Part shown: positions 4,468-50,718 of the stretch, piece by piece
Position numbering within the stretch: the stretch's first letter is position 1
How the letters are laid out: each line of letters opens with the position of its first letter
Source of the DNA: Chthonomonadales bacterium
GTDB lineage: Bacteria > Armatimonadota > Chthonomonadetes > Chthonomonadales > CAJBBX01
Direction of reading: 5' to 3'
Length of the DNA: 64,000 nt
Assembly (NCBI GenBank): GCA_012517255.1
Contig: JAAYVH010000159.1
Span: 2,793-66,792, forward strand
The notes under the pieces: model-generated
Database searches by the model: none
What the model saw: the letters and a program-made list of their open reading frames with translations, nothing else
Told to the model about the DNA's origin: nothing
Position numbers and translations under genes: made by a program

Positions 4468-5241
4468 ATGAGAGTGTGCGGTGCGCAGATGGCGGTAACG
4501 CGCGATGTATCGGCCAATGTCGCGGCTCTTCTGCGCGCGATCGAGTATGCGGCTCAGGTACGGGCCGACGTGCTCCTGACGCCAGAGGGTTCGCTGAGCG
4601 GCTATGCTGCGCGGTTTCCGAGCCATCAGGTCGAGCAGGGCCTTGCACGGGTAACCGCGGCGGCAGCCGAGGCGCGCATCGCGCTGGCCCTCGGGACGTG
4701 CTTCGTCGAACCCGACGACGGACGGATATACAACGAGGTTCGGTTCTACGACCGGTGCGGCGCATTCCTGGGGTTCCATACCAAGACGCTTCTGTGCGGC
4801 ACGATCTTCGAACCCCATGAGGGCGAGATCAACGAGTTCGCAACGAGGCCCCTGCGCACGTTCGATCTGAATGGCGTAACCGTCGGCGCTCTTATCTGCA
4901 ACGACCTCTGGGCCAATCCCGGCTGCACTCCGATGGACGACCCGCACCTGACGCATCGTCTGGCGATGATGGGCGCGCGCATCATCTTCCATGCTGTCAA
5001 CGGAGGGCGGGACGGAGGCGAATGGTCGCAGATCGCATGGCGCTATCACGAGTCCAATCTGCAGATGCGCGCCCAGGCCTCGCGCCTGTGGATCGTGACG
5101 GTGGATAGCGCGCATCCGATCACCATGCCGTGTTCGGCGCCGTCGGGGGTAGTCGGGCCCGATGGGCGGTGGGTGGCGCGCGCGGAGCCTCAGGGGGAAC
5201 ACATGTTCGTCGCGGACATTCCGGTTGAGGTCCGACCGTGA
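4468..5241 (+). CDS. carbon-nitrogen hydrolase (nitrilase superfamily amidase)
   Basis: The Glu-Lys-Cys triad is present in the expected order and context: LLTPEGSLSGY, FHTKTLL, ALICNDLW. GGGAGG lies upstream of ATG 4468. Confidence 0.8.
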   Translation: MRVCGAQMAVTRDVSANVAALLRAIEYAAQVRADVLLTPEGSLSGYAARFPSHQVEQGLARVTAAAAEARIALALGTCFVEPDDGRIYNEVRFYDRCGAFLGFHTKTLLCGTIFEPHEGEINEFATRPLRTFDLNGVTVGALICNDLWANPGCTPMDDPHLTHRLAMMGARIIFHAVNGGRDGGEWSQIAWRYHESNLQMRAQASRLWIVTVDSAHPITMPCSAPSGVVGPDGRWVARAEPQGEHMFVADIPVEVRP

Positions 5242-7571: not shown

Positions 7572-7730
7572 CGCATCCGGGCGACAGCCATTTGCGACGT
7601 TGCAGGAAGATCGGGAGGAGAGCGCGCCGCGGAGCGCGAATAGTCACCCGGCACGTCTGTTGTTGTCGGGGGCAAGGCTCCTGACAACATGAGGCCGTGA
7701 GCCAAACCCGCCCTGCAGGAGGAAACCGCT

Positions 7731-9479
7731 ATGCGCGAGCGCCACAGTCCGAGGGGATTGCCCCGGTGTCAGGCCTTTCGGCCCCCTCTGGCGTATGCCC
7801 TCGTGAGTGCCCTTCTGGTGGCGATCGCCGTCGGAGCTTCCGCGCAGGAGATCTCCCGCGAGGATATGGACGCCTGCATGGCCTGTCACGCTGCCCCGAT
7901 GGGTGATGCCGCCGCGGTGAATCGGGACGCCCTGAAGATATCGCCCCACAAGGACCTGGCGTGCCAGGATTGCCACACTTCGATGACGGCGGCGCCGCAC
8001 ACGAAAGAGATGCTGGCCCAGAGGGCATCGTGCGGAACCTGCCATCCGGAGCCGCTCTCGGCGTACATGGACAGTGTGCACTCGCGGCCCGACAAAGTCG
8101 AGGGCGACCATCCGACGTGCCGATCGTGCCATGGACGCGGCGGCGATCCTCATGCCGTGGTCAAGCAAGCGTGGACGCGCCGGCAGACGACGGGCCTGTG
8201 CGCACGATGCCACAGCGAGAAGGCGCGCATGGCGCGCTACGGCGTGGATCCGGATGCTTCGCGCTCGTATAGCGACAGCTTCCATGGCAAGGCGCTCCTG
8301 CGGTTCAACCTCGTGAAGGCCGCAGGATGCGTAGACTGCCATAAGCAGCACGACGTCAAGTCGCCCGGCGACCCGACGGCGCCCACCAATCGTGCGAACG
8401 TTGCCGCGGTGTGCGGTCAGGACGGTTGCCACCCGGGAGCGAAGATGAACTTCGCCATGTCGGGGGCCAATCACCTGAAACTGAAACTCAAGGCCGTGCC
8501 TCTGCTCCGCCTCGAGGAGCTCTTTTTCCAGTGGCTCACCGCCGGCACTATGCTGTTCCTTATCGGCGGCATCGCGCTGGACCTGCGCACGCGGGTGTTC
8601 ACCAGGAAGCAGGTGCCCGCAGCGAGCCGCGTCGTGGCCGCGATCATCGCCGCCAGCTTCCTCGCGCTGGTCGCCTCGCTGGCCATGGCGGTGGCAGGCT
8701 TCGGACGACCGCGGTGGGTCGGGATCGCCGCCGTAATCCTCATGGCGCTTGCCGGCGTGGTCTGGGCAGCGGTTGGCCGTCGGGCGAAGCCATCATCGGG
8801 TCCTGAGAAGGAGTATCCGCGTCTGGACCTCGTGCACCGGCTGCAGCACATCCTGTTGTTTGTCAGCTTCATCGCGCTTGCCGTAACGGGGCTTCCCCTC
8901 CGATTCGCGCACCATCCCTGGCTCGTGGCGATGTATCAGGCCATGGGAGGCATTGGCGTCGCTCGCGGCATCCACCGCGTTGCGGCCGTCATGATGATCG
9001 CGGCCTGGATCTGGCACACCATCGACCTGCTCATACGCTGGAAGCGGGCGGGGTTCCGGTTCTCATCATGGAGCATGTTCCCGACGATGAAGGACGTCCG
9101 CGACTTTGTGCAGCTCAGCCGCTACTATCTGGGACTGTCGTCGGAGCCGCCGAAGTTCGACCGGTTCGAGTTTCGCCAGAAGTTCGACTACTTCGCGGTC
9201 TACTGGGGCATGCCCATTATGGTGTTCTCGGGGCTTGTGCTGTGGTTCCCGATCTTCTTCGGCAACATGCTCCCTGAGACAGGAGTGTCGGCGGCCTACA
9301 TTGCCCACAGCGATGAGGCCATCCTGGCGGTGCTGGCCATTGCCGTCTGGCATTTCTATAACGTCCACTTCAACCCGGGCGATTTCCCGATGAGCTTCGC
9401 ATGGCTCACCGGAAAGAAGACGCGAAGCCAGATGGAGCACGAGCACCCGCTGGAGTTGGAGCGGATCGAGCGGGGCTAG
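7731..9479 (+). CDS. membrane multihaem cytochrome c fused to an FdnI/HydC-like di-haem cytochrome b domain (CbcL-like quinol-linked electron-transfer protein)
   Basis: AGGAGG at 7717-7722 and a signal/anchor sequence. Six CXXCH motifs (Cys at aa 49, 78, 101, 130, 157, 200) plus one CX4CH (aa 228-234) and about 8 spare His residues. About 7 hydrophobic helices follow, the last four carrying His in HRLQHILLF, GIHRVAAV..WHT, YIAHSDEA and WHFYNVH. Confidence 0.75.
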   Translation: MRERHSPRGLPRCQAFRPPLAYALVSALLVAIAVGASAQEISREDMDACMACHAAPMGDAAAVNRDALKISPHKDLACQDCHTSMTAAPHTKEMLAQRASCGTCHPEPLSAYMDSVHSRPDKVEGDHPTCRSCHGRGGDPHAVVKQAWTRRQTTGLCARCHSEKARMARYGVDPDASRSYSDSFHGKALLRFNLVKAAGCVDCHKQHDVKSPGDPTAPTNRANVAAVCGQDGCHPGAKMNFAMSGANHLKLKLKAVPLLRLEELFFQWLTAGTMLFLIGGIALDLRTRVFTRKQVPAASRVVAAIIAASFLALVASLAMAVAGFGRPRWVGIAAVILMALAGVVWAAVGRRAKPSSGPEKEYPRLDLVHRLQHILLFVSFIALAVTGLPLRFAHHPWLVAMYQAMGGIGVARGIHRVAAVMMIAAWIWHTIDLLIRWKRAGFRFSSWSMFPTMKDVRDFVQLSRYYLGLSSEPPKFDRFEFRQKFDYFAVYWGMPIMVFSGLVLWFPIFFGNMLPETGVSAAYIAHSDEAILAVLAIAVWHFYNVHFNPGDFPMSFAWLTGKKTRSQMEHEHPLELERIERG

Positions 9480-25887: not shown

Positions 25888-28207
<2,320 letters not shown>

Positions 28208-28208
28208 G

Positions 28209-29090
28209 ATGGACCGCCCCGTCGGCATCATCTGCCGCAACGTAGTCTCCATGCGCTGCCGGCCCGACGCGCTGTCGGAATCGGTCAGCCAGGCGCTCTG
28301 GGGCGAGCGCGTCGCGTTGATGGCCGACTCCCGCGGATTCGCGCTCATCGAGACGCCGGATGGGTACCGCGGGTGGGTGATCGCCGATGCTGTCTGCCCC
28401 GCTCTCTCCCTGACAGGCCGCAGCAGCACGCGTTTGCGAGATACCGGCGCCGAACCGGCGGCCCATGCGTCCGGCCTCTGGGGGACAGACGAACAAGAGC
28501 GGGTGATCGGCGAGCTTCTGGCGCCGCTGCGGACTCAGCCTCGATCCGACGCCCGTCCTATCACGCTGCTAACGATCGGTGCGCGAGTGACCATGGCTGC
28601 CGGCTCCGATGATGACGGGTATGCGCCCATCGCATTGCCCGGAGGCGGCATCGGCTTCGTCGAGACGAGCGCCATCAGGGAGCCGCCATCCGCCCGAATC
28701 GCCTCCCGAGAGGAGCTGGCTCACGAGGCCTTCCGCTTCATGGGCATTCCCTACCTCTGGGGCGGACGCTCGACGTTCGGCATGGACTGTTCGGGCTTCG
28801 TCCAGATGGTCTACGGGCTCCACGGCACGATCCTACCGCGGGACGCCTACCTGCAGGCGGCCTGGACTGGCGCGGAGCCCGTGGAACGCAACGGCTTGAG
28901 CCCGGGCGATCTCGTGTTCTTCGGCGGCGACGATCCAAGGGGGAGGGGCATCACGCACGTTGGAATGGCGCTCGATCCTCCGGACTTCATCCATGCAGCG
29001 GGCGGAACCGGCGTAACGATCAGTTCGCTGGAGGATCTGCCCTACAGCGCGATCTACCGTTGTGCCGTGCGCCCACGCCTCACGGCATGA
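28209..29090 (+). CDS. NlpC/P60 (C40) peptidoglycan endopeptidase with N-terminal SH3b-like region
   Basis: Catalytic core GIPYLWGGRSTFGMDCSGFVQMVYG ... GDLVFFGG ... ITHVGMAL ... FIHA, giving a Cys-His-His arrangement. Confidence 0.85.
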   Translation: MDRPVGIICRNVVSMRCRPDALSESVSQALWGERVALMADSRGFALIETPDGYRGWVIADAVCPALSLTGRSSTRLRDTGAEPAAHASGLWGTDEQERVIGELLAPLRTQPRSDARPITLLTIGARVTMAAGSDDDGYAPIALPGGGIGFVETSAIREPPSARIASREELAHEAFRFMGIPYLWGGRSTFGMDCSGFVQMVYGLHGTILPRDAYLQAAWTGAEPVERNGLSPGDLVFFGGDDPRGRGITHVGMALDPPDFIHAAGGTGVTISSLEDLPYSAIYRCAVRPRLTA

Positions 29091-29109
29091 CCGCGGGTTA
29101 CGGCATTCC

Positions 29110-32100
29110 TCAGAATCGCAGGCCGATGTCGGCGTCGAGCGATCGGACGTGGTAGCTGTAGTCGGCGGTGCCTGCTGTCGTCCTGGACTGGTACTTCTGG
29201 TCGCGCCATCCGATCTGAAACTGCGTGTTGTTGCCGAGATCGAAGACGAACCCGAAGCTGAGCGTGCGCTGGATGGACGCAAGGTAGCCGGTGCTGTCCG
29301 CGCTGTCGAACTGCAGGAAGAGATTGCTGGACCACCACACCGGGTACTCCAGCCTCAGCCCATAGGCTGACAGGTTGGTGCCCCCGCTGCCAAAGTAGCC
29401 GCCGTAGCCGCCTCCATAGTAGCCGCCATACGACCCGCCGGTCTGCCCGCCCGTGGTATCGCCGGAGGTGGCGGAGGCCTTGGTGGAGGATCGCATCATG
29501 TTGTAGTTCATGGAGGCCGTCAGCTTGCCCCAGGGCCTGGAGGTAGCGTTGAGGTAGAGGCCGGAGGTAGACGTTCCGCCCTCGCTGCCGATGTAGGCCA
29601 CGCTCTGCGTCAGGATGCCACCGACGATGCTCAGGCGCTCGCCCGGATTGTAGTTGGCGCTCAGCGACAGGCTGTCGCGCTTGCTGTTGAACAGATAGTC
29701 GCCGACGCTCGATCCATTGCTCCAGTTGACATCGAAGCTCAGCGTGGGCAACGGCTGGTAGTTGGCGGTCACGTTCAGTCCGCGCGAGTTGCCGCCGAAG
29801 CTGGCAGAGCCCAGACCGTAGCCGCCGATCCCGAGCCCGCCGCTGTAGTTGCCGTAGGTGCCCAGTCCGCCGTTGACCCCGCCTCCATAGTAGCCGCTGA
29901 AGTTGCCTCCCGGATAGCCTATGGTGCCGATCTGACGCGTCGTCGACGCAGGAGCGGCAGCGCCGTTTCCGCCGGTGTAGTCGGTGTATCCGCTGAACAG
30001 CGAGTAGCCGCCCGAGGTCTGGTTCTGGTAGCCGATGGTGAGCGTGAGGTTTCGCAGCGGCTGTGCCCTCGCGTTGAGGGTGATGTCCTGTGCGTTGTTG
30101 TTGCGGCCGTCTGCGCTCTTGATCGAGCTGTTCGTCAGAATCGTGTCGAAAGAGAGCCGCTCGCCAACGCTCCAGCGAGCGCCGATGCGCGCATTGAGCG
30201 AATCGCTTCCATAGGCAGCGATCTGCGGCTCGGCGGTCCCGCCGGTGGTGTAGCGGGCGGCCGTGGAAGCGTGCTGCCGACCCAGCGAGAAGTCGAGGCT
30301 GAACTGCCCGAGGGTCTGTTGGTAGGCCAGCGTGTCCGTTTCATGCACGCTGTTGCCGCCGAGCCCCATGCGCGTACCCATCTCATTGCGTGTGTAGCTC
30401 AGCGTGCCGCCGCGGGGCATCTGCCAGTTAGCCCGCAGCGTTGTCATGCTGAAGTCGTCTATGCCGGCGGCCGGGGCGATGCCCGACGAGCCGACGGACG
30501 TGCTGTAGCTGTAGGCGGGACGTTTGGTCCGCTCGACGGTTGCGTTGATCTTGAGCTTCGGGCTCGCCTCATAGTCGGCCGACAGCGACACGCCCCGATC
30601 GTTACGTCGGAAGCCCGGGCTCTGGATGGCGGTGAAGTTCGCGCCGATGTTTTTCAGCGTCCAGTTCAGGCGCAGCTTGTCGCCGGGTAGGCGCATGTCG
30701 CTGCGAATCTGCCAGGCGTTGCTGCCCGCTCCCTGGCCCGTGAGACTGAGCGAGCTCTGAGCCATTTCCGCGGTGATGGTGCCCAGTTTGCCCAAGGACG
30801 TTGTGACGTCCAGCCCCAGCACCGAGCGATCGCCGGACGTCCCGTCGCCGGATGCTGGCCGATAGACGATCCGGATGATCTGCGTGCTGGGTATGGCCAT
30901 CTTGAAGTACACGCGGTTGGGCAGCAGCGGGTCGAGGACATAGTCGGTGCCGTAGGCTTGAGGCAGGCCCGACACAGTGACTGTCATCGGATAGACGGGC
31001 ACGCAGCCCGTGATCTTTCCCTCTTCGTCCCGGATGAGCGTCACCTCGACAGGTAGTTCGAGGACATACGGCGCCGTCGCGCTGTTGTAGCCGTAGAACT
31101 GCTCCGTCTTGGTGGCTGTGCGGTTGGCAGATCGATTCTCGGTCTGGGTGAGATACGTGACGCCCAGTCGGGCGGGCTTCAGGGCTGTCACGTCGGCGCG
31201 CCAGCCCGTGAGAAGACCGGGCGACTGATTGTAGCCGTACGTTTCGAAGGTGACCGCGATGGTGTCGAGCTCATGCACGATCAGCCCGTTGAGGAAGTTC
31301 AGCTCGCCGGTGTAGGGGTCCATCGTGTAGTCCTGCCCGAGGATCATGTCGCGGTTGTTGACCCGGACGCGGGCGCTGCCGTCCACCACCTGACCGGCGA
31401 AGACGTAGTAGGGTCCCGAGCGGTTCGCGCCGTTGATCACGATGGTGCGGGTCTGGGCCTTCTCCTGACTGTACAGCGTGCTCACCTTGACGCCGGGCGC
31501 CACATTGGCCGACATCGTGACGCCGGTGAGCGAGCGGCTGAAGTCCACCAGCGAGTTGCCCGTGACGCCCGCCTGAATGTCGCCAGCTTCGATGCTGAAT
31601 CCCCGCGAGGCGTAGCTGAGCTTGATCCGGTTGTCGTAGGGGTTGCCGTAGACGTTATCGGTGTAGCGCGTCTCGAACGATACGAGACCGAGGACTTTGC
31701 CCGATATGGTCACGTCGGTGTCCGTGTAGCCGCCGCCCATCGAGCGCCGCCCGTAGTACGTGGAGTTGTCGTAGGAGTCCCTGCTCCCCGAGATGGCCTC
31801 GGCATGATACCGGAGGTTGTGCTGGCCGGTGATCTTGAGGTCCGAGCGGGTGACAGTGCCCAGGTTCCGCAGCCATCGCTGGACGCCGTTCAGAAAGCCG
31901 AACGGGTTCCGCAGAGAGGTGTGCGACGAGCCAAGGCCACTCGCACCCGCATCCGGCCTGGGCGGCCCGGAGACTGCCGCACCGGTTCTCTGCCCCGACG
32001 AGGTCGGCAGAGCGTTCAGGGCGTCCCACAGGGTCTCATCCGCCGAGGCGACGCCGGGGAATGCCGCTATGGCAAGGACGTACGCGAGCCGAACCATGCG

Positions 32101-32184
32101 CTGCGTCAGCAATCGGGATCCGGCGCGGCGTCGTGCCGGTTGTTCGTGCGACCTTCGCGCTGTAGCGCTGCTCCTGCCGATCAT
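29110..32184 (-). CDS. very large outer-membrane beta-barrel protein, unassigned family
   Basis: Signal peptide ...MVRLAYVLAIAAFPGVASADE. There are dozens of amphipathic beta-strand-like segments (LSLSANYNPGERLSIVG, LNVTANYQPLPTLSFDVNWS, ITLNARAQPLRNLTLTIGYQN) and Gly/Tyr/Ser/Asn-rich loops. The C-terminus ends in a canonical beta-signal, LDADIGLRF. Candidate starts are ATG 32184 (GGAGGAG just upstream) or ATG 32097. The ORF-track start at 32385 overlaps csaB. Confidence 0.6.
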   Translation of the reverse strand: MIGRSSATARRSHEQPARRRAGSRLLTQRMVRLAYVLAIAAFPGVASADETLWDALNALPTSSGQRTGAAVSGPPRPDAGASGLGSSHTSLRNPFGFLNGVQRWLRNLGTVTRSDLKITGQHNLRYHAEAISGSRDSYDNSTYYGRRSMGGGYTDTDVTISGKVLGLVSFETRYTDNVYGNPYDNRIKLSYASRGFSIEAGDIQAGVTGNSLVDFSRSLTGVTMSANVAPGVKVSTLYSQEKAQTRTIVINGANRSGPYYVFAGQVVDGSARVRVNNRDMILGQDYTMDPYTGELNFLNGLIVHELDTIAVTFETYGYNQSPGLLTGWRADVTALKPARLGVTYLTQTENRSANRTATKTEQFYGYNSATAPYVLELPVEVTLIRDEEGKITGCVPVYPMTVTVSGLPQAYGTDYVLDPLLPNRVYFKMAIPSTQIIRIVYRPASGDGTSGDRSVLGLDVTTSLGKLGTITAEMAQSSLSLTGQGAGSNAWQIRSDMRLPGDKLRLNWTLKNIGANFTAIQSPGFRRNDRGVSLSADYEASPKLKINATVERTKRPAYSYSTSVGSSGIAPAAGIDDFSMTTLRANWQMPRGGTLSYTRNEMGTRMGLGGNSVHETDTLAYQQTLGQFSLDFSLGRQHASTAARYTTGGTAEPQIAAYGSDSLNARIGARWSVGERLSFDTILTNSSIKSADGRNNNAQDITLNARAQPLRNLTLTIGYQNQTSGGYSLFSGYTDYTGGNGAAAPASTTRQIGTIGYPGGNFSGYYGGGVNGGLGTYGNYSGGLGIGGYGLGSASFGGNSRGLNVTANYQPLPTLSFDVNWSNGSSVGDYLFNSKRDSLSLSANYNPGERLSIVGGILTQSVAYIGSEGGTSTSGLYLNATSRPWGKLTASMNYNMMRSSTKASATSGDTTGGQTGGSYGGYYGGGYGGYFGSGGTNLSAYGLRLEYPVWWSSNLFLQFDSADSTGYLASIQRTLSFGFVFDLGNNTQFQIGWRDQKYQSRTTAGTADYSYHVRSLDADIGLRF

Positions 32185-32230
32185 ACTCCTCCGTGCCGCG
32201 GCTCGATGCCTGCGGACGTACGCCGGAACA

Positions 32231-33349
32231 TCAGGCGCTGACTCCCAGATGCCGAACGACGCGCTCTGCGTTGGCGTAGGCCTCCGTGCGCAGCCGCTCG
32301 ACTGCAGCCGATAGCCTCTCGCGGGAGGCGGCATCCGCCATGGCCCGCTCAACGGCATCCGCCACCAGTTCCGACCTTGCTTCATTCAATCCTGTAACGT
32401 AATCTGACTGCCCCAGCGTTTCCATAAACGCATGCACTTTTGGATCATAGGCGATTCCCACGAGGGCCGCTCCGCCCATTGCGCCGAAGATGAGGGCATG
32501 GAGGCGCATGGCCACCACCGACTCCATTGCCGCGCACGCGGTGATGTTCCCTGCGAAGTTCTCCGACAGTACGGAGGCTCCCACGGGGCAGGGATCGCAC
32601 AGCGGCCGATCCTGGACTGCCTGCATGGGCATGAGCGCGACGCCATAGCCGCGAGCCATCAGGCTGCGTGCCAACGATGAGACGAGGGATGCCACGTCGG
32701 CGTTCGCCCATGGTCGGGGCGCAAGACCCACCACGGGTCGCGACACGTCGGCTCCTGCTCGGCGCAGCAGGCTCAGGCCCTCCTCGCGCGATGGCTGTTC
32801 CAGTGCGAAGGCCGGATCCGAGGTGACATGGATGTCGTCTCGTGCGACGCCGATCTGCACAAGAAGGTCCCTGGAGCGCTCGTCTCGGACCGAGACATAC
32901 GCCGCCGGACCGATGACGCGCCGGACCAACCATCGGGAAGTCCTCCGCCGCAACGGGCCGATGCCCTGAGCGTAGACCACCACCGGCTTCCCCAGGCGGT
33001 GGGCCATGCGCAGGATCCACGCGTAATAGACCACGGATCGTAGGCTCGTAGCATCCTGAAAGAGACTGCCGCCGCCCGAAATGAGCGCACTCGCATCGTG
33101 GATCGCGCGCCGGACCTGCCTCATGTCCATGCGGGGGACCGCGCCCACTCCATGATCCTGTTCGGTAGCCTGAGGATCGGCGCTGAGGGCCGTAAAGGCT
33201 GATCGCTCGACGCCCGCCTGCGCGAATGCCCGCAGCATGCCGGCGAGAACTGCCTCGTCGCCGGCGTTCCCGAAGCCGTAGTAACCTGAAACTACCAGCC
33301 GCACGAACGCATCAGCCCGTCGACGACGGCGAGGGCTCGGCGCGGCCAC
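32231..33349 (-). CDS. csaB: polysaccharide pyruvyl transferase CsaB
   Basis: N-terminus VVSGYYGFGNAGDEAVLAGML, then GGGSLFQDATS and the conserved C-terminal MRLHALIF block. A GTG at 33304 would remove the overlap with the upstream gene. Confidence 0.8.
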   Translation of the reverse strand: MAAPSPRRRRRADAFVRLVVSGYYGFGNAGDEAVLAGMLRAFAQAGVERSAFTALSADPQATEQDHGVGAVPRMDMRQVRRAIHDASALISGGGSLFQDATSLRSVVYYAWILRMAHRLGKPVVVYAQGIGPLRRRTSRWLVRRVIGPAAYVSVRDERSRDLLVQIGVARDDIHVTSDPAFALEQPSREEGLSLLRRAGADVSRPVVGLAPRPWANADVASLVSSLARSLMARGYGVALMPMQAVQDRPLCDPCPVGASVLSENFAGNITACAAMESVVAMRLHALIFGAMGGAALVGIAYDPKVHAFMETLGQSDYVTGLNEARSELVADAVERAMADAASRERLSAAVERLRTEAYANAERVVRHLGVSA

Positions 33350-35303
33350 GAGCCAGGCGCGCCACTATCGCAAGCGCCATGGCGCCCAATGCCGCGCCCA
33401 GCGCCAGCCCGACTGCCACCCGCATGGCCGAAAGCACGAGCGGCGTGTGGATGTGGCAGAACGTATTGAGGACCGAGACCTGCCCGATGGCAGCGATGAC
33501 GGCAAGCGGAGCGGCCCACCGCCGCCGCCCCATGGCCGCCAGACCGATGGCCAGAATCCACGCCGGATGGCCCAGCAGAAACTCCTTGGTGCGCGGCCGA
33601 ATGGGAAGCGCGGCATCGAGCAGTGCGCGGGCTCGCAGCTCCATGCCGGACACGCCCACCCCGGGCTCGTTGCCCGTCCTCGCGACCGCCAGCATGAGCG
33701 CCACCAGAATGATCAGCCCGAGGGCCATGGCCCAGACAAGGACCGGTTGCCCGAGGAATGCCTGCGCGCGACTCGCCATGCGAGCCCTGACCTTGTCCAG
33801 AGCCTCACCGGGATCGGGCAGCCCCGTGACCAGCAAGATCGCGATGATAGCGATCGGCAGGGCATGCGCCGCTTTGATGCCGAGGAACTGCGTGGTCCTG
33901 AGCATGAACGGACGGGAGGCCAGCAATCCCACGACGGTGGCTATGCCGAGCGATGTCACCAGCGTCGCTTCGATCAGCGAGCGTACAGCATGCAGAAGGG
34001 GTTGGCGCCGTTCCGTCGCGTCTTCCGAGTGGATCATCCGGACGAGCGGCAGACAGGCGAGCGTCGGCGCAGCGATCGCCGCCAACAGGGCCACCACGCG
34101 CCGCCCGGACTCTCCGGCGCACGCGGCTGCGGCGCAAACCAGCGGCGCCAGGAGCGCCCACCACAGCCATCGCCGTCCGGCGCACGGGAGCACGCTCAGC
34201 GCAAGCCAGGCTGCCAGCGAGCCTGCGGCCATGCCGGCGAGGCCAAAGGCCCATACCGGAGCGCCCGTCGCTTCAAACGGCTTCGGATCCCCTGGCCGGA
34301 TCAGGCCGCCCCGCTCCATGCCCTTCACGATCCGGCCGATGTACCGGACGTTGCGCTCCACCGAATCCGAACCCGCGAACGTGACGAGGCGAACGTAGAT
34401 CATCCTGATGTTCCGCTCTCGCGCCGCTCGGACGAAACGGTCCACGGCATCGTCCTCGCTCAGCGTGCCCATTTCGCCTTCGGATATGCTGTGCACCCGG
34501 ACGTACCGAGAGTCCAGGGCGCGCGCGAGACGGTCATCCCCCTTCTGCTTGCCGAACTCCACCTGGCCCCACAGAACGCCGGCGCTCTCGAGTGCCTCGG
34601 CAGCCTCCTTCGCAGCGCCATAGTGTCCGAGCACCTCGGTGCCGGTGCATATCACGGTGTCCGCGCCTGAGGCCCGGATCGCCGACAGAACCTGCGTCAC
34701 GGTCATGCGCGTTGCGCCCGCGAAGTTGGATATCCGAGCAACACATGTGAGCCCGGCGGATCGAACCGTCGCCACGGCGTCAGGCGGCAAGCCGACGCCG
34801 ACGGTGCGAACTGCAGGATAGGAGGCGAGGAACCGCACGTAGCCAGCCGCCTGTTCGGCGGATCCGGACCGCGGCGCGGCTGCCCATAGGAGCACAGTCG
34901 GAATGTCGGACGGTGTCGTCTCGTGGGCGACCGTCATGCCGCGCATCCTGAGATTGGCTGATACCCGCTCGAAGGTGGCGGCGTCGCGCAACTGCAGCAC
35001 CGTCATGGCGCCGGAGGCGCTCACATCGGCGCGGCCCGTGTCCACGAGGTCCTGCACCGTGTCTTCCGTGACGGCTACCCCCGTGACGCCGACTCGTTTC
35101 AGGTGGAACAGCGTGTCGGCTATGGGCACGCCCGATGCAGTCGCCAAGCGCGCGGCCTCCGCAAAGTCCACCACCACCGCGACGCGGCGATTGCGCTGTT
35201 CCACCCGATACCGAAGACTCGCGGCAAACAGCGCAGCCGCAACGCCAACCGCGAGCATTACAACGAGCGACACGCGCCATGGGGCGCGGGACTCAGAAGT
35301 CAT
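33312..35303 (-). CDS. polytopic membrane protein with N-terminal extracytoplasmic domain (DUF5693-like; secondary cell-wall polymer biogenesis candidate)
   Basis: One N-terminal TM helix, a ~330-aa soluble domain (VAVVVDFAEA...GVTGVAVTEDT...), then about 9 or more TM helices. Its position directly upstream of csaB matches my recollection of the DUF5693 family. This has not been checked with an HMM. Confidence 0.5.
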   Translation of the reverse strand: MTSESRAPWRVSLVVMLAVGVAAALFAASLRYRVEQRNRRVAVVVDFAEAARLATASGVPIADTLFHLKRVGVTGVAVTEDTVQDLVDTGRADVSASGAMTVLQLRDAATFERVSANLRMRGMTVAHETTPSDIPTVLLWAAAPRSGSAEQAAGYVRFLASYPAVRTVGVGLPPDAVATVRSAGLTCVARISNFAGATRMTVTQVLSAIRASGADTVICTGTEVLGHYGAAKEAAEALESAGVLWGQVEFGKQKGDDRLARALDSRYVRVHSISEGEMGTLSEDDAVDRFVRAARERNIRMIYVRLVTFAGSDSVERNVRYIGRIVKGMERGGLIRPGDPKPFEATGAPVWAFGLAGMAAGSLAAWLALSVLPCAGRRWLWWALLAPLVCAAAACAGESGRRVVALLAAIAAPTLACLPLVRMIHSEDATERRQPLLHAVRSLIEATLVTSLGIATVVGLLASRPFMLRTTQFLGIKAAHALPIAIIAILLVTGLPDPGEALDKVRARMASRAQAFLGQPVLVWAMALGLIILVALMLAVARTGNEPGVGVSGMELRARALLDAALPIRPRTKEFLLGHPAWILAIGLAAMGRRRWAAPLAVIAAIGQVSVLNTFCHIHTPLVLSAMRVAVGLALGAALGAMALAIVARLARGRAEPSPSSTG

Positions 35304-36033
35304 CGTAATATCGGCCTCTCGAGCGTCGGGTCAGATTGCGGCCTCCCAGCATTGTCACCAGCAGCAGACCGCATACGAAGCCTCCCGCATGGGCGGCGTA
35401 GGCGACGCCTCCGCCGCGCAGCTCGCCGCCGCCGAACCAGTTCACGTTGAGGAACTGGATGACGGCCCAGAAGCCGATGACGATCACCGCGGGAACCTCC
35501 ATAAGCGTGCTGAAGAACATCACCGGCACGAGCGCCAGCACGCGGGCATGCGGAAACAGAATGAGATAGGCCCCCATGACGCCGGCCACGGCTCCGCTGG
35601 CGCCGACCGTGGGTATGTCGGACTGAGGCCCTGTGACGATATGGGCGGCTGCCGCCCCGACGCCGCACACGAGGTAGAAGACGATGAAGCCCAGGTGCCC
35701 CAGCGTGTCCTCAACGTTGTTGCCGAAGATCCACAGGTAGAGCATGTTGCCCAGAATGTGGAGCCAGTTGGCATGGAGGAACATGGACGTGAACACCGTG
35801 AGCCATGCCATGCCGAGGTCTGAGGTGATCTCGGAAGGCACCATGGCGTAGTGATCGGCGAAGCCGCCGATCTGGCGCTGGTAGACCATGATCCCATCCG
35901 GCGTCAGCGCGCGAACGATCTCAACCCGACGCGACAGGATGTCCAGCACGAAGACGCCGACATTCACGCAGATGAGCATGAGCGTGACCGCCGGAAAGCG
36001 ACGCGTCGGATTGCTGTCGCGAAGAGGAATCAT
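35293..36033 (-). CDS. rhomboid-family intramembrane serine protease
   Basis: HANWLHILGNMLYLWIFG, GASGAVAGVMGAYL (catalytic Ser) and HAGGFVCG (catalytic His) are present. The ORF-track start at 36090 is an extension. Confidence 0.85.
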   Translation of the reverse strand: MIPLRDSNPTRRFPAVTLMLICVNVGVFVLDILSRRVEIVRALTPDGIMVYQRQIGGFADHYAMVPSEITSDLGMAWLTVFTSMFLHANWLHILGNMLYLWIFGNNVEDTLGHLGFIVFYLVCGVGAAAAHIVTGPQSDIPTVGASGAVAGVMGAYLILFPHARVLALVPVMFFSTLMEVPAVIVIGFWAVIQFLNVNWFGGGELRGGGVAYAAHAGGFVCGLLLVTMLGGRNLTRRSRGRYYDDF

Positions 36034-36113
36034 GATGGTTGCTCGCGGGCATTCTGACACACATGCTCGCCCGTGAGCAACCGCGCGCATAGTGAGACGA
36101 TTGGCGGCTCGTT

Positions 36114-36373
36114 GGGGCGAATCAAGCGCCGAACGGAGCCGCGATGAAGACGGACGCGGTACGACGCGGTTGGTTCGCCCAGTTCAAGCCGTGACGGCCG
36201 CCGCCAATCGGAACGAGGGCGTACCAGCCGGTTCTGGGCTCGGGCCGTGTGTTCGCGACATCGGCGCCCCGGCTGACACGCCCCTACGCACCGTCGGCAG
36301 CCCGTAGGGGCGAATCAACCGCCGAACGGAGCCGCGATGAAGACGGACGCGATACGACGCGGTTGGTTCGCCC
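36114..36373. repeat. structured REP-like repeat, about 1.4 copies (same family as 51894-52093 and 52333-52531)
   Basis: Module a is a long hairpin, GGGCGAATCAAGCGC (36115-36129) pairing with GCGGTTGGTTCGCCC (36166-36180). Module b contains GGGCGTACCAGCCGGTT. Module c ends CGCCCCTACG (36279-36288), which pairs with CGTAGGGGCG (36303-36312) at the start of a second module a (36307-36373). Confidence 0.8.
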
Positions 36374-36389
36374 GCGCAACGGTACGACC

Positions 36390-39300
36390 CTACAGGATGT
36401 TCAGCGTTCCCTCTCCGTAACCGGGCTCGAGCCACGCGTCGCCATAGAACTCGCACCGGATCGTGTGGGCGCCGATCGGATCTACGGCAGGGTACGAATG
36501 CCGCGCAACACCCGAGCCGTCTGTCAGCACCGAGACGATCACCGTGCCGTCGAGTTTGAAATCCACGGGCTTGCTGGTCTGGGGCTGGTAGTCCTTGAGG
36601 CGCCGGAAGTAGGCGTAGAACGGAGCATTGTCGCCTTGCTTCACCGACTTGCTCAGCACCCAGATGTAGACGAGCGCCTTCTGGACCGTCAGCTTCGCGG
36701 TCACCGAGGAGGCCAGGAAGCCGCCGTCGCCCGCCCATTCGGCGCGGATCGTGCGAATGCCTGCGCCGTTCCCGTCCGGTATCGTGTAGGGGACCTGCGC
36801 GCGCCCGGTGTAGATGGTGGTGTCCGTTCCCACGACGGTGCCGTCCACCTTGATGGTGACAAGCTTGCCGGGCACCGGCGTGTTATCGAGCTTCCAGAGC
36901 CACGCCCGGAGCACCTGATAGGAGGTGATGCGCCCGGTGCGATCAATGCTGGACATCTTCGTGGGCACGGTCTGTGCCGTCAGAGTCGCGTTGGCGCTGG
37001 AGCTGTTGTAGGTCACGTCGCCCGCGAACTCCGTCGTGATGGTACGCGTGGCAGGCCCATCGGTGATGATCCAGTCCAGCGAGGAATCGCCGCCGTCGTT
37101 GGTGGTCGCGGTGCCGACCTGTGTGCCGTCGATTCTGTACCGTATCGTCTTGCCGGACAGCAACTGATTGTCTGTGAGACGCTTGAGGTCGAACTGCCGC
37201 AGGATGGTCAGCGTGGTGATGATGCCGCTCCGGTCGATGGTGTACTGGGTCGTGTTGGCCTTCGTGACCGTCAGCGTTCCGGATCCTGAGGACGAAGCGT
37301 ACTCGCTGTCGCTGGTGTAGGAGGCGCTGATCGTGCGACTGGCCGCACCGTCGGGCACGGCGTAGCTCGCCTGCGCCACTCCCGAAGCGTCCGTCGTTCC
37401 CGATCCGGCAGCGGAGCCGTCCACGGTGAACTGCACGGTCTTGCCCGCAATGGGGGCGCCGTTGCTCTGTCTGGTTAGCGTGGCCGCGAGCGTCACGCTC
37501 TCACCGGGTGCGCCGGAGGCCGGAGCAACCGCCAGACTGGTCGGTATCTTGGACAGCGTGAAATCGGCGTTGCTGGTGTCCGTTGCCGGACCGGAGGCGC
37601 TGCTCACTTTCACGCGGTAGTCTGTGCCGGCGGGCAGGTTGGTGGCGATGTCCCAGGAGAACGAGCCGGCGCCGCCGGAGCCGACGGGGGCCGACGCCGC
37701 CAGCGTCTTCTGGAGCACGCCGCCCTTGAACAGCTCGATCTTAACATCGGCGCCCGGCGAGCCGGTGTAGGTCCATGTGATGTCGCGGGTGTCGCCGAGC
37801 TGCCAGTTCTCTCCGCCGTTCGGCGAGGTCACGGTAATCGAAGCCGAGGCGCTGTACGTCAGCGCCCACGCGCCGGAGCCCGACACTCTCTTGATGACAA
37901 TGTAGGCGGTTCCGCTCGCGGCGGGCGTGTGGACGATGCTCTCGTCGGTCCCTGCTGACGCCGACGTGCTGGACGCCAGGATAATCGGATTGCCGTAGGC
38001 GTCGGGCGTGCCGGAATAGAGATAGAGATCGTAGTCTGCGCCTGGCGGCACGTCGAGCGACAGCGTGATCTGATCGCCCGATGTCAGACTGGTCTTGCGG
38101 GCCCAGGCCCTGCGATCGAACGCCGTTCCGGTCGTGGTCCCGTTGATGGTGTCGCCCGGCGACATGACCTGATAGGCGGCTTCCACAGCCGCATCCGTGT
38201 TGAGAAGGCCATAGCCCTCATACATGTCCTTGGGTGTGGCGGCTCGGCCCAGGGTGGGGTTGTTCGTTCCGCCCTCTCGGTTGGCGTTGGTCTCGGTTGC
38301 GGTGGCGCAGAGGAGCATCTTGACAAGACGCGGATGGGCGTCTCCGGTGAAGCTCCACGTCAACCCGCCGGCTTCCAGCGCCTGAATCACCAACGCCGCC
38401 GCTCCCGCTGCGAAAGGCGACGATGACGAGGTGCCCCGCTTGTTGGTGTAGTCGTTGGCATAGACATCGGCGAAAGTGTTGCTGCCGGCGTCCGATTGGT
38501 TGGAGTCCGGCGCGAGGATGTGCGAGTTGTACTTCGAGCCGCCCGGCGGAGCCAGATCCGGCTTGTAGTCGGTGTTCCATTCCTGCGTGAAGTTGCCGGT
38601 CGAGCTGTAGTCGGTCAGCACATTGGCGTCGCTGGATGCGGCGGTAGTGATCGCCATCTGGGCTCGAGCGGGATCGGTCATGACGCCGGTCGGGCCTGCG
38701 TTGCCTGCCGAGGTAACCACGATGAGCCCGTTGCCGACGGTGCTGTTGACCTTGTTGCGGATGCCGGAGTGAGCCGAGGCGGTGCTCAGGCTGATGTTGA
38801 CCACCTTGATGCCGTAGGTCGAAGCGTAGGCAACGCACTCGTCGAGGGCGTAACCGATGGTGGTGGTATCCCCTCCTCCTCCGTCATTAGCGTAGACTTT
38901 GTGGCCCACCCAGTAGCACCCGGGCGCGACGCCGCTCAATGCCGGGAAGCCGTCGCCGACACCGGCATAGGTCACGCTCGCCGCGGTGGCATAGCGCGTG
39001 ACCGTCGAGCCCGACACCTTGGTCAGGTAGGTCGAGTAATGCCGGTTGGACTGCGCGGTGAAGCTCGCCGTCACGGTGCGGGGCGATGTCCCGGTGGAGG
39101 TGGGGGTACCGAGCGTGTAGGAATAGGCATTGTCATCGCCATACACGTAACCCAGCGTCGCCTGGCCTCCGCCGAGGAATGTGGCGGTCATGCTCAGGGT
39201 TGCGCTGCCCGCGGGCAGATGGAGCGGCCAGGGCTGGAAGCTGCCGGCCGACACGCTCGAGAGGTCCCCATAGTCGGTGATGCGCAGGGTGGTAGGTGAA

Positions 39301-47336: not shown

Positions 47337-48728
47337 ATGAACGTCATTCTTGTGTCGCTCGACACCTTGCGCGCCGACAGGCTCGGCTGCTACGGGCATT
47401 TCCGGCCCACCACCCCGCATCTGGACAGGCTCGCGGCCCAGGGCACGCTGTTTATGGAGCATTTCAGCCCGCACATCCCGACCTATCCGGGACACACGAC
47501 GATGCTAACGGGGCGCGATGTCTATGCCCATCATGTGACGGGACAGTCGGCTGCCTTCGAGCCGCCGGCAGACATGCCCATGCTTGCCGAACGCCTGAAA
47601 GACGCCGGCTACTGGACGGCGGCCGCCGACAATCTGGGCAAGTGGTTCACGCGCGGCTTCGACATGGTGGAGACCTATGCGTGGGATACGAGCCTCAAAC
47701 GGGAATGGCGCAAGGGCGAAGCGGTCCTCGAAGCGTCGCTCAGGGCCCTGAATGTCGCTGCGGATCAGGCGCAGCCGTTCTTTCTCTTCCTGCATTTCTG
47801 GGATCCTCACACTCCGTATCTACCTCCGGCCCCGTTCGATCGGATGTTCTTCGAGGGCGACGAACGGGACCCGACCAACCGGTCCATGGATGCGGTGTGG
47901 GCCTTCGAGCCCTTCAAGTGGTACTTCCACGAATGGATGCCCGGCGTGACGGACATCGAGTTTCCCAAGGCACAGTACGATGCCGAGATCGCGTATATGG
48001 ATGCATGTCTCGGTCATGTGCTCACCCGGCTCGAGGAACTTGACCTGGTGGACGACACGCTGCTCGTGATAACGACCGATCACGGCGAAGAGCTCGATGA
48101 GCATGGTTGCTGGTTCGATCACCACGGTCTCTATGACACCAACACCCGGATACCCCTGATCTTGCGTCTGCCCGGCGCCGTTCCGGCTGGACGCCGCGTC
48201 CACGGCCTGACTCGCTCTCTTGATCTCGTGCCGACGATCCTCGACTATGCGGGCGTCGCCGCGGAACCTCTCGATGGCATCAGCATGCGGCCCTTGATCG
48301 AGGCGGACGGCCCTGGCGTGTCGCGGGGGACCTGCGACGCGATCCACATGACCGAAAACACGTGGATGAAGAAGCGCGCGGTGCGCACGCATGCATGGAA
48401 ACTCATTCGCGCCCTGGAGCCCGACGCGCACGGCTTCCCTGAGGTCGAGCTCTACAACCTGAGCGAGGACCCTGAGGAGCAGCGCAACGTGGCGGATGCC
48501 ATGCCTGAGCAGGTGGCGGCCCTGACGGCGATCATGGAGGACCACGTGCGCCGGCGCGTCGAGACCACAGGCCGCCCCGATCCGCTGCCCCTGCAGCCCG
48601 TGCCGCTCAAGCGCGTCGGCAAGATGCAGGACTCTGTGCCTGACAAGGCGGGAGCCGCGGTTGGTGACGAGAAACTCCGCGACGGCGATTTCATCGGCTA
48701 TGTTCGCGACGACCAGGAGCGCGGGTGA
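47337..48728 (+). CDS. alkaline-phosphatase-superfamily hydrolase (sulfatase/phosphodiesterase-like)
   Basis: N-terminal metal-site motif VILVSLDTLRADRLGCYG. The nucleophile block reads PTYPGHTTMLTGRDVYAHH (Thr, NPP-like) instead of the C/S-x-P-x-R of formylglycine sulfatases. GGAGG lies upstream. Confidence 0.75.
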   Translation: MNVILVSLDTLRADRLGCYGHFRPTTPHLDRLAAQGTLFMEHFSPHIPTYPGHTTMLTGRDVYAHHVTGQSAAFEPPADMPMLAERLKDAGYWTAAADNLGKWFTRGFDMVETYAWDTSLKREWRKGEAVLEASLRALNVAADQAQPFFLFLHFWDPHTPYLPPAPFDRMFFEGDERDPTNRSMDAVWAFEPFKWYFHEWMPGVTDIEFPKAQYDAEIAYMDACLGHVLTRLEELDLVDDTLLVITTDHGEELDEHGCWFDHHGLYDTNTRIPLILRLPGAVPAGRRVHGLTRSLDLVPTILDYAGVAAEPLDGISMRPLIEADGPGVSRGTCDAIHMTENTWMKKRAVRTHAWKLIRALEPDAHGFPEVELYNLSEDPEEQRNVADAMPEQVAALTAIMEDHVRRRVETTGRPDPLPLQPVPLKRVGKMQDSVPDKAGAAVGDEKLRDGDFIGYVRDDQERG

Positions 48729-48730
48729 TC

Positions 48731-49549
48731 ATGTCGGACCTTCAGGCTCTCATACTGGGGTTTCTGCAGGGCTTCACGGAGTGGCTGCCCATCAGCAGCA
48801 CGGCCCACCTTGCCGTGGCGCTGCATCTGTTCGGCCTGAGCGAAAGCCAGGGCATGGGCGCCGCATTCACGGCTGTTAGCCAGCTCGGCTCCGTGCTGGC
48901 GGCGGTGGTCTATTTCCGCAAGGACATTGCGGACGTGCTCTTGCGGCCGGCGGGCTCGTCGGCCGAGCCGGACAGGGCCGACCGTCGGCTGCTGATGCCG
49001 GTCATCATCGGGACCATCCCGGTGGTGGTGTGCGGCGTACTGCTGAAGGACGCCATCGAGGGACCGTTCCGCGCTCTCCATGTGATTGCGGGCAGCATGA
49101 TCAGCTTCGGCATCATCCTTGCCGTTGTCGAGAAGAAGGCCAAGCGAACGCGCAGGTTGGGAAGCATCGGCGTGTGGGACGGGCTTGCCATCGGGATCGG
49201 TCAGGCCTTCTCGCTAATGCCGGGCGCTTCGCGCTCAGGCACCACCATCACCGCAGCGCTTGCCTGCGGTCTCGAGCGGGCCACGGCCGCCCGCTTCTCG
49301 TTCCTGCTGAGCCTGCCGGCCATCACCGGCGCCGGCCTCTATGAGCTTGTCAAACACCGCGAGGCCATCGTCGCGGCCCAGATGACCCGGCCCATCATTC
49401 TGGCCACCATCATGGCGTTCATCGTGGGCTGGGCGACCATAGACTTCCTCATCAAGTTCCTGCGACGACACCCGACGTATGTGTTCGTCTGGTACAGGGT
49501 TGTGGTCGGCGTCATCATCATGGCGCTGGTTATGGGGGGACTGCTGTAG
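48731..49549 (+). CDS. uppP: undecaprenyl-diphosphate phosphatase
   Basis: MSDLQALILGFLQGFTEWLPISSTAHL and PGASRSGTTI are the UppP/BacA signatures. An alternative GTG at 48725 overlaps the upstream stop. Confidence 0.9.
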   Translation: MSDLQALILGFLQGFTEWLPISSTAHLAVALHLFGLSESQGMGAAFTAVSQLGSVLAAVVYFRKDIADVLLRPAGSSAEPDRADRRLLMPVIIGTIPVVVCGVLLKDAIEGPFRALHVIAGSMISFGIILAVVEKKAKRTRRLGSIGVWDGLAIGIGQAFSLMPGASRSGTTITAALACGLERATAARFSFLLSLPAITGAGLYELVKHREAIVAAQMTRPIILATIMAFIVGWATIDFLIKFLRRHPTYVFVWYRVVVGVIIMALVMGGLL

Positions 49550-49569: not shown

Positions 49570-50718
49570 CTATGAGGCGTCTGACGCTCGGTTTCGCGCT
49601 TCTGCGGCAAGTCTTTCGAGATAGGCCTTATCTTCGGGGTCGTCGGCAGACGCCAGGAACGCCTGAAGCCTGGCCTGTGCGTCCGGCGTGAGCCCTTCGC
49701 TCCGCAGCAGCCATGCAATGGCCCGGAGCTGCGCTTTGCGGCGCGTTCTCTCATCCGAGGCGCTCGCAGCCACGGCGTCATAGGCGGCAAGCGTAAGCCC
49801 GGAGTCGGCTCCCTGCGAGACGGCTGAAGCCAGGGCCATGGCCTGCTCGTCGGTCAGCAGGCGCAACGGGTTCAGATCCGCGACGATGCCGTACAGTCGC
49901 ACGGCCGCGTCGGTCTGGCCCGCGCCCATGGCGTGGGCGATCTGCTCGGCGGCGACGGACGCGGCTCGCTCGCGGTCGCCTGTGTCCCTGAGCGCTTCGA
50001 TCCATCGCACGACGGCTTCGCGGTTCGTCGGATCCGATCGGACCACCGACTCCCACTTCTCGGCTGCGGCGAACGGCGAGACGCCGTCCGCTTCGTCATG
50101 AATCGCCTTGCGGCGGTAGTCGCGCTGAGCGGTCGCCACCATGCCGGAGGCATGCGCCCAGCCGATGCCCAGCAGGAAGCCCGCTATATGCGCCCAGTGA
50201 GCCGCCGATGGCGCGATCGCGCCGCCCGTCTGCGCCGAGTGGGCGGCGATGGACACCATCTCGCCGCAGGCTGTGATCGCTATCAGCGGAACGACGGGCA
50301 CGCGGATGCGCGTTCCGCCGATGCACAACCTCGAGCGATAGAAGCATGCCGCGAACACTCCCAGCACCCACGCGACCGGGCCAGACGCTCCGATCACCAT
50401 GATGTCTCGTTCGCGCACGGGCCCGTAGATGACCGCGCCAGCTTCACAGAGCCCGGTCAATGCCGCCGCCGCGACGAACAGGAGGGCAAACCGCCAGCGA
50501 CCCATGGCGCGTTCGACTGCGCTCCCGAACACGAAGAGCAAGAGCATGTTCACCGAAAGATGGAGCAGGTGTTCGTGGAGCAGCCAGTAGGTGAAGGGGG
50601 TGTGCCACCGGATCGAGTCCGGGGCGAGACCGAGCGCCGCGAACCAGCGGACGGGAATGTCGGGGCCCGTGCGCCATGTGACGACGGCCACGAGCCCGAA
50701 CGCGGCCATGTTCGCCAT
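49570..50718 (-). CDS. rhomboid-family protease with C-terminal helical-repeat (TPR-like) domain
   Basis: HLSVNMLLLFVFGSAVE, GASGPVAWVLG and HIAGFLLGIG form the membrane core. A ~180-aa alpha-helical soluble tail follows. Confidence 0.7.
   Translation of the reverse strand: MANMAAFGLVAVVTWRTGPDIPVRWFAALGLAPDSIRWHTPFTYWLLHEHLLHLSVNMLLLFVFGSAVERAMGRWRFALLFVAAAALTGLCEAGAVIYGPVRERDIMVIGASGPVAWVLGVFAACFYRSRLCIGGTRIRVPVVPLIAITACGEMVSIAAHSAQTGGAIAPSAAHWAHIAGFLLGIGWAHASGMVATAQRDYRRKAIHDEADGVSPFAAAEKWESVVRSDPTNREAVVRWIEALRDTGDRERAASVAAEQIAHAMGAGQTDAAVRLYGIVADLNPLRLLTDEQAMALASAVSQGADSGLTLAAYDAVAASASDERTRRKAQLRAIAWLLRSEGLTPDAQARLQAFLASADDPEDKAYLERLAAEARNRASDAS

Follow-up and report, generated by a model that had tools for sequence, protein, structure and literature searches.

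In diderm Terrabacteria the outer membrane (OM) is thought to be tethered by β-barrels bearing S-layer homology (SLH) domains, which grip a wall polymer pyruvylated by CsaB, and loss of this tether is a leading model for the origin of monoderm bacteria. Barrels of this kind are SlpA of Deinococcus radiodurans and Thermus thermophilus, and OmpM of Negativicutes and cyanobacteria. The secondary cell-wall polymer (SCWP) locus of Paenibacillus alvei has the order orf1-csaB-tagA-tagO; its CsaB pyruvylates a lipid-linked ManNAc-GlcNAc precursor, and TagA and CsaB together build the pyruvylated lipid-linked repeat (PMC6030368). Polymerization and ligation of the SCWP are acknowledged open steps of the pathway. 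In Bipolaricaulota, csaB adjoins genes for client outer-membrane proteins (OMPs), Ompalpha and Ompbeta (bioRxiv 10.1101/2021.05.31.446380). Here we describe a four-gene cluster that encodes a rhomboid protease, a DUF5693 membrane protein, a CsaB-type pyruvyl transferase and a giant β-barrel, found in a 64,000-nucleotide stretch of DNA (the window) from a Chthonomonadales bacterium of the phylum Armatimonadota (assembly GCA_012517255.1, contig JAAYVH010000159.1, positions 2,793–66,792). G+C content is approximately 65% throughout the window.

The four genes form a real, conserved but modular envelope cluster. Its DUF5693–CsaB pair is well supported by homology and context as a predicted SCWP pyruvylation core, and its barrel belongs to a new family of giant, SLH-less OMPs that is genetically tied to this core. 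The initial annotation of the locus was aware of no described system with this combination, and none was found in the literature searched. That literature held no paper combining Armatimonadota, outer membrane and SLH, none describing the giant barrel, none mentioning DUF5693 or PF18949, and no relevant paper linking CsaB with a rhomboid. What is new is that a CsaB-centered envelope system in diderm Terrabacteria includes a rhomboid and a giant barrel free of SLH.

Arrangement and conservation of the cluster

The initial annotation described four co-directional minus-strand genes with tight junctions, and all four open reading frames (ORFs) are present as described (29110–36090; Table 1). The rhomboid gene, ending ...YYDDF-TGA at 35295..35293, overlaps the DUF5693 gene (ATG 35303) by 11 nt. 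The TGA of the latter ends at 33312, leaving csaB with either a 38-nt overlap (GTG 33349) or a 7-nt gap (GTG 33304); GTG 33304 is the more likely start, because the CsaB profile match opens at approximately residue 17. The csaB TGA ends at 32231, and 46 nt further down lies the barrel ATG 32184, which has GGAGGAG before the start codon. An alternative ATG at 32097, 133 nt past the csaB stop, is used in the public gene call (P0001, 995 aa). For the rhomboid, ATG 36033 gives a protein equal in length to the orthologue at locus L001; the longest ORF reaches 36090. All four gene assignments were borne out, those of the rhomboid, DUF5693 and CsaB by Pfam/NCBIfam and that of the barrel by AlphaFold2 (AF2) and Foldseek. 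A scan of 28900–36500, in a host whose promoters are not known, revealed no promoter-like sites and no convincing intergenic minus-strand terminator.

Conservation was followed from both ends of the cluster. On the DUF5693 side, a profile survey of one genome per GTDB species brought up no fewer than 589 relatives, and the 80 best of their loci were mapped with local hidden Markov models; on the barrel side, seven barrel homologs were looked up in their loci. The complete four-gene set is present in 12 of the 80 species-level loci. The order rhomboid-DUF5693-csaB-barrel recurs between unrelated flanks at barrel identities of 54%, 34%, 28%, and 27% (L001, L003, L004, and L087, respectively), which places the arrangement beyond chance. 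Six of the seven barrel homologs lie directly after DUF5693-csaB (the four loci above, L090 at 51% and L089 at 43% identity), and four of these six loci also contain the rhomboid. Start/stop overlaps link cluster genes in L004 and L087.

Across the DUF5693-side loci, a rhomboid gene stands immediately upstream in 38, all but two of them from bins labeled Armatimonadota or left unclassified, and in 23 the gene next after csaB is that of the barrel. Lineages with the barrel in this position are Chthonomonadales, Fimbriimonadales, and their relatives; many Armatimonadota have the rhomboid but, where the barrel would be, a lipoprotein gene, LptC/LptA-like genes, or both. Conservation of the order thus extends across related genomes, but not as one obligate four-gene unit, the rhomboid or the barrel being often missing. 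The cluster is modular, comprising an older DUF5693–CsaB core to which rhomboid and barrel are separate, often absent add-ons.

Upstream of the cluster, the 356-nt gap between the stop codon of an S8 protease gene and the rhomboid start contains a 78-nt direct repeat whose two copies share 94% identity and are separated by 193 nt. The copies have terminal inverted arms (GGGCGAA...TTCGCCC), with fold z-scores of just −1.2 to −1.6. No further copy is present in the window, and there was no significant Rfam match. This could be a regulatory or mobile repeat.

The DUF5693–CsaB pair

The window CsaB scores 261.8 bits against the TIGR03609 equivalog model (cut-off 213.1; profile positions 1–291 of 301) and 126.5 bits against PF04230 (PS_pyruv_trans). 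Its partner, identical to the deposited protein GX446_09565 of a Chthonomonadales metagenome-assembled genome (MAG), matches PF18949 over profile positions 2–606 of 609 (456.8 bits). The AF2 model of DUF5693 (predicted local distance difference test score, pLDDT, 92.2; predicted TM-score, pTM, 0.90) comprises an N-terminal transmembrane (TM) helix, a TIM-barrel-like α/β domain (approximately residues 40–335) and nine further TM helices, 10 in total, with invariant Arg, Lys, and His residues close to the membrane surface. The positive-inside count is 13.1 against 11.0 Lys + Arg. In the PDB, neither a fold comparison (best E 4e-3) nor a sequence comparison (nothing at E ≤ 10 beyond noise) gave a significant relative.

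DUF5693 adjoins csaB in 74 of 86 loci, and the pairing spans Armatimonadota and Firmicutes, including Halanaerobium, with further examples labeled Margulisiibacteriota and Wallbacteria. In two Wallbacteria-labeled proteins (P0173 and P0174) the two are fused in single polypeptides, DUF5693 being N-terminal and CsaB C-terminal (P0174: DUF5693 at residues 9–595, CsaB domain at residues 629–914). The fusion places the DUF5693 C-terminus in the cytoplasm and argues for physical partnership. Halanaerobium salsuginis and Thermosediminibacter oceani (L091, L092) share the order secA-prfB-DUF5693-csaB-tagA. Given the fusion to CsaB and the parallel between this csaB-tagA order and the P. alvei locus, DUF5693 is best interpreted as a membrane protein of the SCWP assembly pathway. 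A protein search for its relatives returned Thermovenabulum, Thermosediminibacter, and Halanaerobium and no Paenibacillus, so a link to P. alvei orf1 is unproven.

By analogy with the P. alvei enzyme, the window CsaB would catalyze phosphoenolpyruvate (PEP)-dependent 4,6-ketal pyruvylation of a ManNAc-containing lipid-linked precursor, and the most likely product of the gene pair is a cell-wall polymer tagged with pyruvate. DUF5693, which constantly accompanies CsaB as a neighbor, sometimes as a fusion partner, and is found beside tagA, is therefore a concrete candidate for SCWP polymerization or ligation.

The slot after csaB is filled in other phyla by unrelated envelope genes (NAGPA/Cu_amine_oxidN1, MurJ, tagA, M50). 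The M50 gene, encoding a site-2 protease, is a single case (L006), on a 2-Mb contig at a locus with neither rhomboid nor barrel; it represents a second kind of intramembrane protease adjoining DUF5693-csaB. In three loci labeled Bacillota, Hebobacterum, and unclassified (L049, L052, L080), csaB is instead followed immediately by the gene for a secreted, conserved ~450-aa protein that has an RLRIVNDxGG...YTASKWV motif and no Pfam match. DUF5693-csaB loci of Armatimonadota-like or Bacillota-like character also occur in bins named Janthinobacterium lividum, Betaproteobacteria, and Methanoregulaceae archaeon (L031, L054, L064), and these contigs are probably mis-binned. In the window, a gene for enolase, which makes the CsaB donor substrate PEP, lies 1.7 kb beyond the barrel gene; its proximity is probably a coincidence, since no enolase gene was seen near the cluster at other loci.

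The barrel family and the rhomboid

The barrel protein, approximately 1,000 aa in length, carries a Sec-type signal peptide (...GVASA|DETLWD) from either start and ends in ...GLRF, the terminal Phe being conserved in at least 90% of the family. No Pfam or NCBIfam family was matched above threshold, and Pfam gave none for 38 family members. A search gave 55 homologs of approximately 1,000 aa, likewise without any Pfam domain, which come from Armatimonadetes/Chthonomonadales MAGs where named, with the exception of one partial Verrucomicrobia-labeled entry. The family numbers 1,507 representatives in a 50%-clustered library (E ≤ 1e-3).

The AF2 model, built from a 38-sequence alignment (pLDDT 71.5, pTM 0.54), contains approximately 36 long β-strands by our own count on the DSSP string; the barrel is put at approximately 34–36 strands, as against 30 in SlpA and 16 in OmpM. 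Two small β-domains are inserted at approximately residues 223–278 and 320–420. Residues 1–65 are disordered and are followed, ahead of the first strand, by a single 17-residue helix (67–83) and no extended coiled-coil stalk. Two Gly/Tyr-rich low-complexity loops of the GGYGGYYGGG type (residues 699–768 and 875–904) are also disordered; in distant members these loops are longer still, and one (P0284) has an inserted CarboxypepD_reg-like region. The protein has the generic features of an OMP, namely the Sec signal peptide, antiparallel amphipathic strands, and a C-terminal aromatic β-signal. Together with the all-β model and the C-terminus, Foldseek searches sustain the proposal of a β-barrel, in that all of the top 50 PDB matches are OM barrels, led by D. 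radiodurans SlpA/SDBC (E 8e-13 to 3e-11) and followed by SprA, MtrB, and LptD.

The N-terminus of the family is distinctive. A [DE]TLWDxL motif begins one to three residues past the signal-peptide cleavage site (DETLWDAL in the window) and is doubled in six members. It is followed by a variable Pro/Ala/Ser/Gln-rich linker (Pro/Ala-rich in distant members), near zero to approximately 200 residues long, then by a basic patch and an amphipathic helix. The initial annotation recognized no SLH domain, and the profile scans agree. Searches of the 38 members (E ≤ 1) and of eight distant ones whose N-terminal extensions are long (E ≤ 0.01) gave no match to PF00395. Nor was an SLH-bearing protein present among the larger ORFs scanned in the window. 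A peptidoglycan endopeptidase gene (SH3b + NlpC/P60) converges on the barrel gene; this neighbor recurs at L001 and L089, but not at L003, L004, or L090.

The window rhomboid matches PF01694 (111.5 bits) and contains the motifs HxxxxHxxxN, GASG, and AHAGG. Across all 38 orthologues linked to the cluster, no substitution affects the catalytic Ser (GxSG, TM4) or His (TM6), or the His and Asn of TM2, and the protease is predicted to be catalytically intact. Rhombosortase identity was rejected: although TIGR03902 is the best NCBIfam match, its score of 36.1 bits falls short of the cut-off of 84. The upstream S8 protease was likewise discarded as a rhomboid substrate, having no C-terminal TM anchor and not being a conserved neighbor. 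A second rhomboid gene, elsewhere in the window, converges on a BacA/UppP gene, the product of which is an undecaprenyl-diphosphatase. The window also encodes a hydrazine-synthase-like protein followed by a cytochrome fusion, a pairing unexpected for an Armatimonadota MAG.

Table 1. Features of the window and of related loci (locus coordinates are those of the locus named)
Feature	Coordinates	Strand	Remarks
Rhomboid intramembrane serine protease	35293..36033	minus	246 aa; PF01694
DUF5693 polytopic membrane protein	33312..35303	minus	663 aa; PF18949
CsaB-type polysaccharide ketal-pyruvyl transferase	32231..33349	minus	TIGR03609, PF04230
Giant outer-membrane β-barrel	29110..32184	minus	no Pfam family; AF2 all-β
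HZS_alpha protein, then multihaem cytochrome c/cytochrome b561 fusion	5238–9479	plus	777-aa protein with hydrazine-synthase alpha middle domain (72.8 bits)
Enolase	25888–27387	minus
SH3b + NlpC/P60 peptidoglycan endopeptidase	28155–29090	plus
78-nt direct repeat, two copies	36103–36180; 36296–36373
BacA/UppP	48725–49549	plus
Second rhomboid	49570–50718	minus	382 aa; PF01694, 66.7 bits
Extended Fimbriimonadales-type cluster, L004	12652–19036
Extended Fimbriimonadales-type cluster, L087	10559–16975
Other loci with lipoprotein or LptC/LptA-like genes beyond the barrel or csaB, L019, L045, L056, L066, L070
Peptidase_M50 gene after csaB, L006	13106–13858

Proposed function of the cluster and comparison with known systems

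In sister lineages the core has further company. In Fimbriimonadales-type loci (extended clusters, Table 1) the genes after the barrel encode a CarboxypepD_reg lipoprotein, a secreted ~900-aa protein without a Pfam match, a ~300-aa protein, and an LptC/LptA-like fusion of approximately 490 aa that carries OstA and LptD_N domains. Capsulimonadaceae and Armatimonadales-type loci have the CarboxypepD_reg lipoprotein in the post-csaB slot, and several Armatimonadota loci have separate LptC-like and LptA-like genes directly after csaB, some with an ABC-type ORF slightly further on. LptD_N and OstA domains are confined to such separate genes downstream in sister lineages. This context suggests an export or translocon role, which the initial annotation had covered loosely under the term “envelope-polymer system.”

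We tentatively favor, short of an even chance, the reading of the barrel as an SLH-independent OM partner of the pyruvylated wall polymer, engaged through its N-terminal extension. This choice is based on the precedent of csaB-linked clients, fold matches to SlpA, and a periplasmic extension that the family conserves. In the proposed mechanism, the opening step of which is well supported by homology and context, CsaB would add a PEP-derived ketal-pyruvate to a lipid-linked wall-polymer precursor at the cytoplasmic face, with DUF5693 as its membrane partner handling the lipid-linked intermediate, possibly in assembly, polymerization, or ligation. The pyruvylated polymer would then reach the peptidoglycan, as in other diderm Terrabacteria. 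There the giant barrel, a pore-forming major OMP, may act as its OM partner, extending the motif, flexible linker, basic patch, and short helix into the periplasm in place of an SLH-plus-coiled-coil stalk. Tethering of the OM to peptidoglycan, which the initial annotation put forward as a possibility, would in this reading fall to the barrel. The weakest step is that of the rhomboid, which, from the inner membrane, might act on DUF5693 or a single-pass partner in processing or quality control.

Several observations weigh against this reading. The cluster is a putative operon on gene spacing only. Of the 80 recovered loci, 37 that extend far enough downstream have no barrel at csaB, and one of the seven barrel homologs (L088) lies away from csaB in an unrelated context. 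Two close relatives (L089, L090) have DUF5693-csaB-barrel without the rhomboid; because they keep the other three genes, the role of the rhomboid is accessory, and the protease is a frequent addition in Armatimonadota. Canonical OmpM homologs have been reported in Armatimonadetes, so that a second tether is not obviously needed. Foldseek TM-scores between the barrel and SlpA are approximately 0.3, and a barrel profile search of PDB sequences returned nothing at E ≤ 10 beyond noise. The extension has no recognizable binding module for a pyruvylated glycan, its motif being only about seven residues long. The topology of DUF5693, probably N-in/C-in with a periplasmic TIM domain, is drawn from the C-terminal CsaB fusion and helix parity. 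The lipoprotein and LptC/LptA-like genes after the barrel in sister lineages, moreover, fit a transport machine better.

Such a machine would be a gated OM translocon of the LptD/E or SprA kind for a pyruvylated glycolipid, polysaccharide, or other cargo, with DUF5693–CsaB at its inner-membrane end and, in some lineages, a plug-like lipoprotein and an LptC/LptA-like bridge. The strand number is consistent with it, as are the several LptD structures among the fold matches and SprA, which has the top query-normalized TM-score (TMq 0.44 to 8gl6_A). Locally, 26 of 38 members match the SprA model (best E 1.2e-11) over approximately 96 residues (233–328, against positions 600–696), a stretch corresponding to a small β-domain and adjoining strands, and there are weak EpsL matches in the family. 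The whole-protein score against SprA/Sov (TIGR04189), however, is 28 for a cut-off of 200, and no type IX secretion system (T9SS) genes are present in the window. The failure to find LptD/E in diderm Firmicutes (PMC5007114) makes non-canonical OM translocons plausible in Terrabacteria. The sister-lineage genes downstream of the barrel or csaB also speak for a translocon, but the lipoprotein, the ~900-aa protein, and the LptC/A-like genes are all missing from the 64-kb window, and the lptC/lptA adjacency could reflect a housekeeping envelope neighborhood, like secA-prfB in Firmicutes. The barrel itself, whether the window protein or any of the 38 members, gave no Pfam match to the LptD_N β-jellyroll, LptD, or OstA_C, and the cluster is without Wza, Wzc, or other outer-membrane polysaccharide export/polysaccharide co-polymerase (OPX/PCP) genes. 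To our knowledge, the products of characterized CsaB-type enzymes are so far wall-bound ligands, and none is an exported polymer. On balance we consider a translocon somewhat unlikely but a serious competitor of the favored reading. A broader version, in which the barrel would be the OM end of an unrecognized trans-envelope pathway in diderm Terrabacteria, with the sister-lineage lipoprotein, ~900-aa protein, and LptC/LptA-like bridge included, DUF5693 as inner-membrane enzyme or extractor, and the rhomboid in control, seems improbable; the barrel would be either a non-canonical counterpart of LptD/E, the translocon not found in diderm Firmicutes, or a translocon for the surface display of a glycolipid or polymer pyruvylated by CsaB.

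The genes might also have no direct mechanistic link, the barrel being a general major porin or structural OM protein and the rhomboid a housekeeping protease, held near DUF5693-csaB by co-regulation of envelope genes or phylogenetic inertia. The absence of rhomboid and barrel, each on its own account, from many DUF5693-csaB loci agrees with this, as do the barrel homolog apart from csaB, a family size that suggests paralogs with general roles, and the unrelated envelope genes that occupy the post-csaB slot in other phyla. We regard the absence of a link as only slightly less probable than a translocon. Against it, barrel-csaB adjacency persists down to 27% identity, in at least three orders, with start/stop overlaps and unrelated flanks, which makes selection on linkage more probable; the second rhomboid gene in the window, furthermore, makes the operon copy look specialized. 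An ordinary OmpM/Slp-type system, with a genuine but diverged SLH domain at the barrel N-terminus, would accord with the place of SlpA at the top of the Foldseek list and with the co-occurrence of CsaB and SLH in diderm Terrabacteria. It is very improbable and largely refuted by the PF00395 scans and the AF2 model, in which the low-complexity N-terminal 65 residues form neither a three-helix SLH fold nor a long coiled coil. The linker, moreover, varies across the family from nearly absent to ~200 residues. The conserved linkage, seen across the phylum, of csaB to a giant SLH-less barrel would point either to a second, SLH-independent coupling of OM and polymer or to an unrecognized role of CsaB products in OM transport.

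Among described systems, rhombosortase/GlyGly-CTERM sorting resembles the cluster in having a rhomboid-family intramembrane protease encoded beside envelope proteins, but the window rhomboid lies far under the rhombosortase cut-off and no GlyGly-CTERM substrate was seen. With the P. alvei SCWP locus the cluster shares the CsaB equivalog, and the csaB-tagA order of that locus is mirrored by DUF5693-csaB-tagA of Halanaerobium and Thermosediminibacter; in contrast to Firmicutes SCWP loci (P. alvei; Bacillus anthracis csaAB), the window csaB has no adjacent tagA/tagO, its neighbors being a rhomboid and a giant OMP. SprA/Sov, the 36-strand T9SS translocon of Bacteroidota, is likewise a giant single-chain barrel, with a local model match; the window barrel is less than half its length, has no nearby T9SS partners, and belongs to another phylum. 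LptD/LptE with its LptC/LptA bridge is comparable in having a large barrel, in the LptD structures among the fold matches, and in the lipoprotein and LptC/LptA-like genes of sister lineages, although that lipoprotein is of the CarboxypepD_reg type and not LptE. The comparison with SlpA/OmpM is similarly divided. The window barrel lacks both the SLH domain and the long coiled-coil stalk and has no sequence similarity to SlpA, but it shares with these proteins the setting in diderm Terrabacteria, the very large OM barrel, the N-terminal periplasmic extension, and the link to CsaB, seen in the window as gene adjacency, and SlpA is its best fold match.

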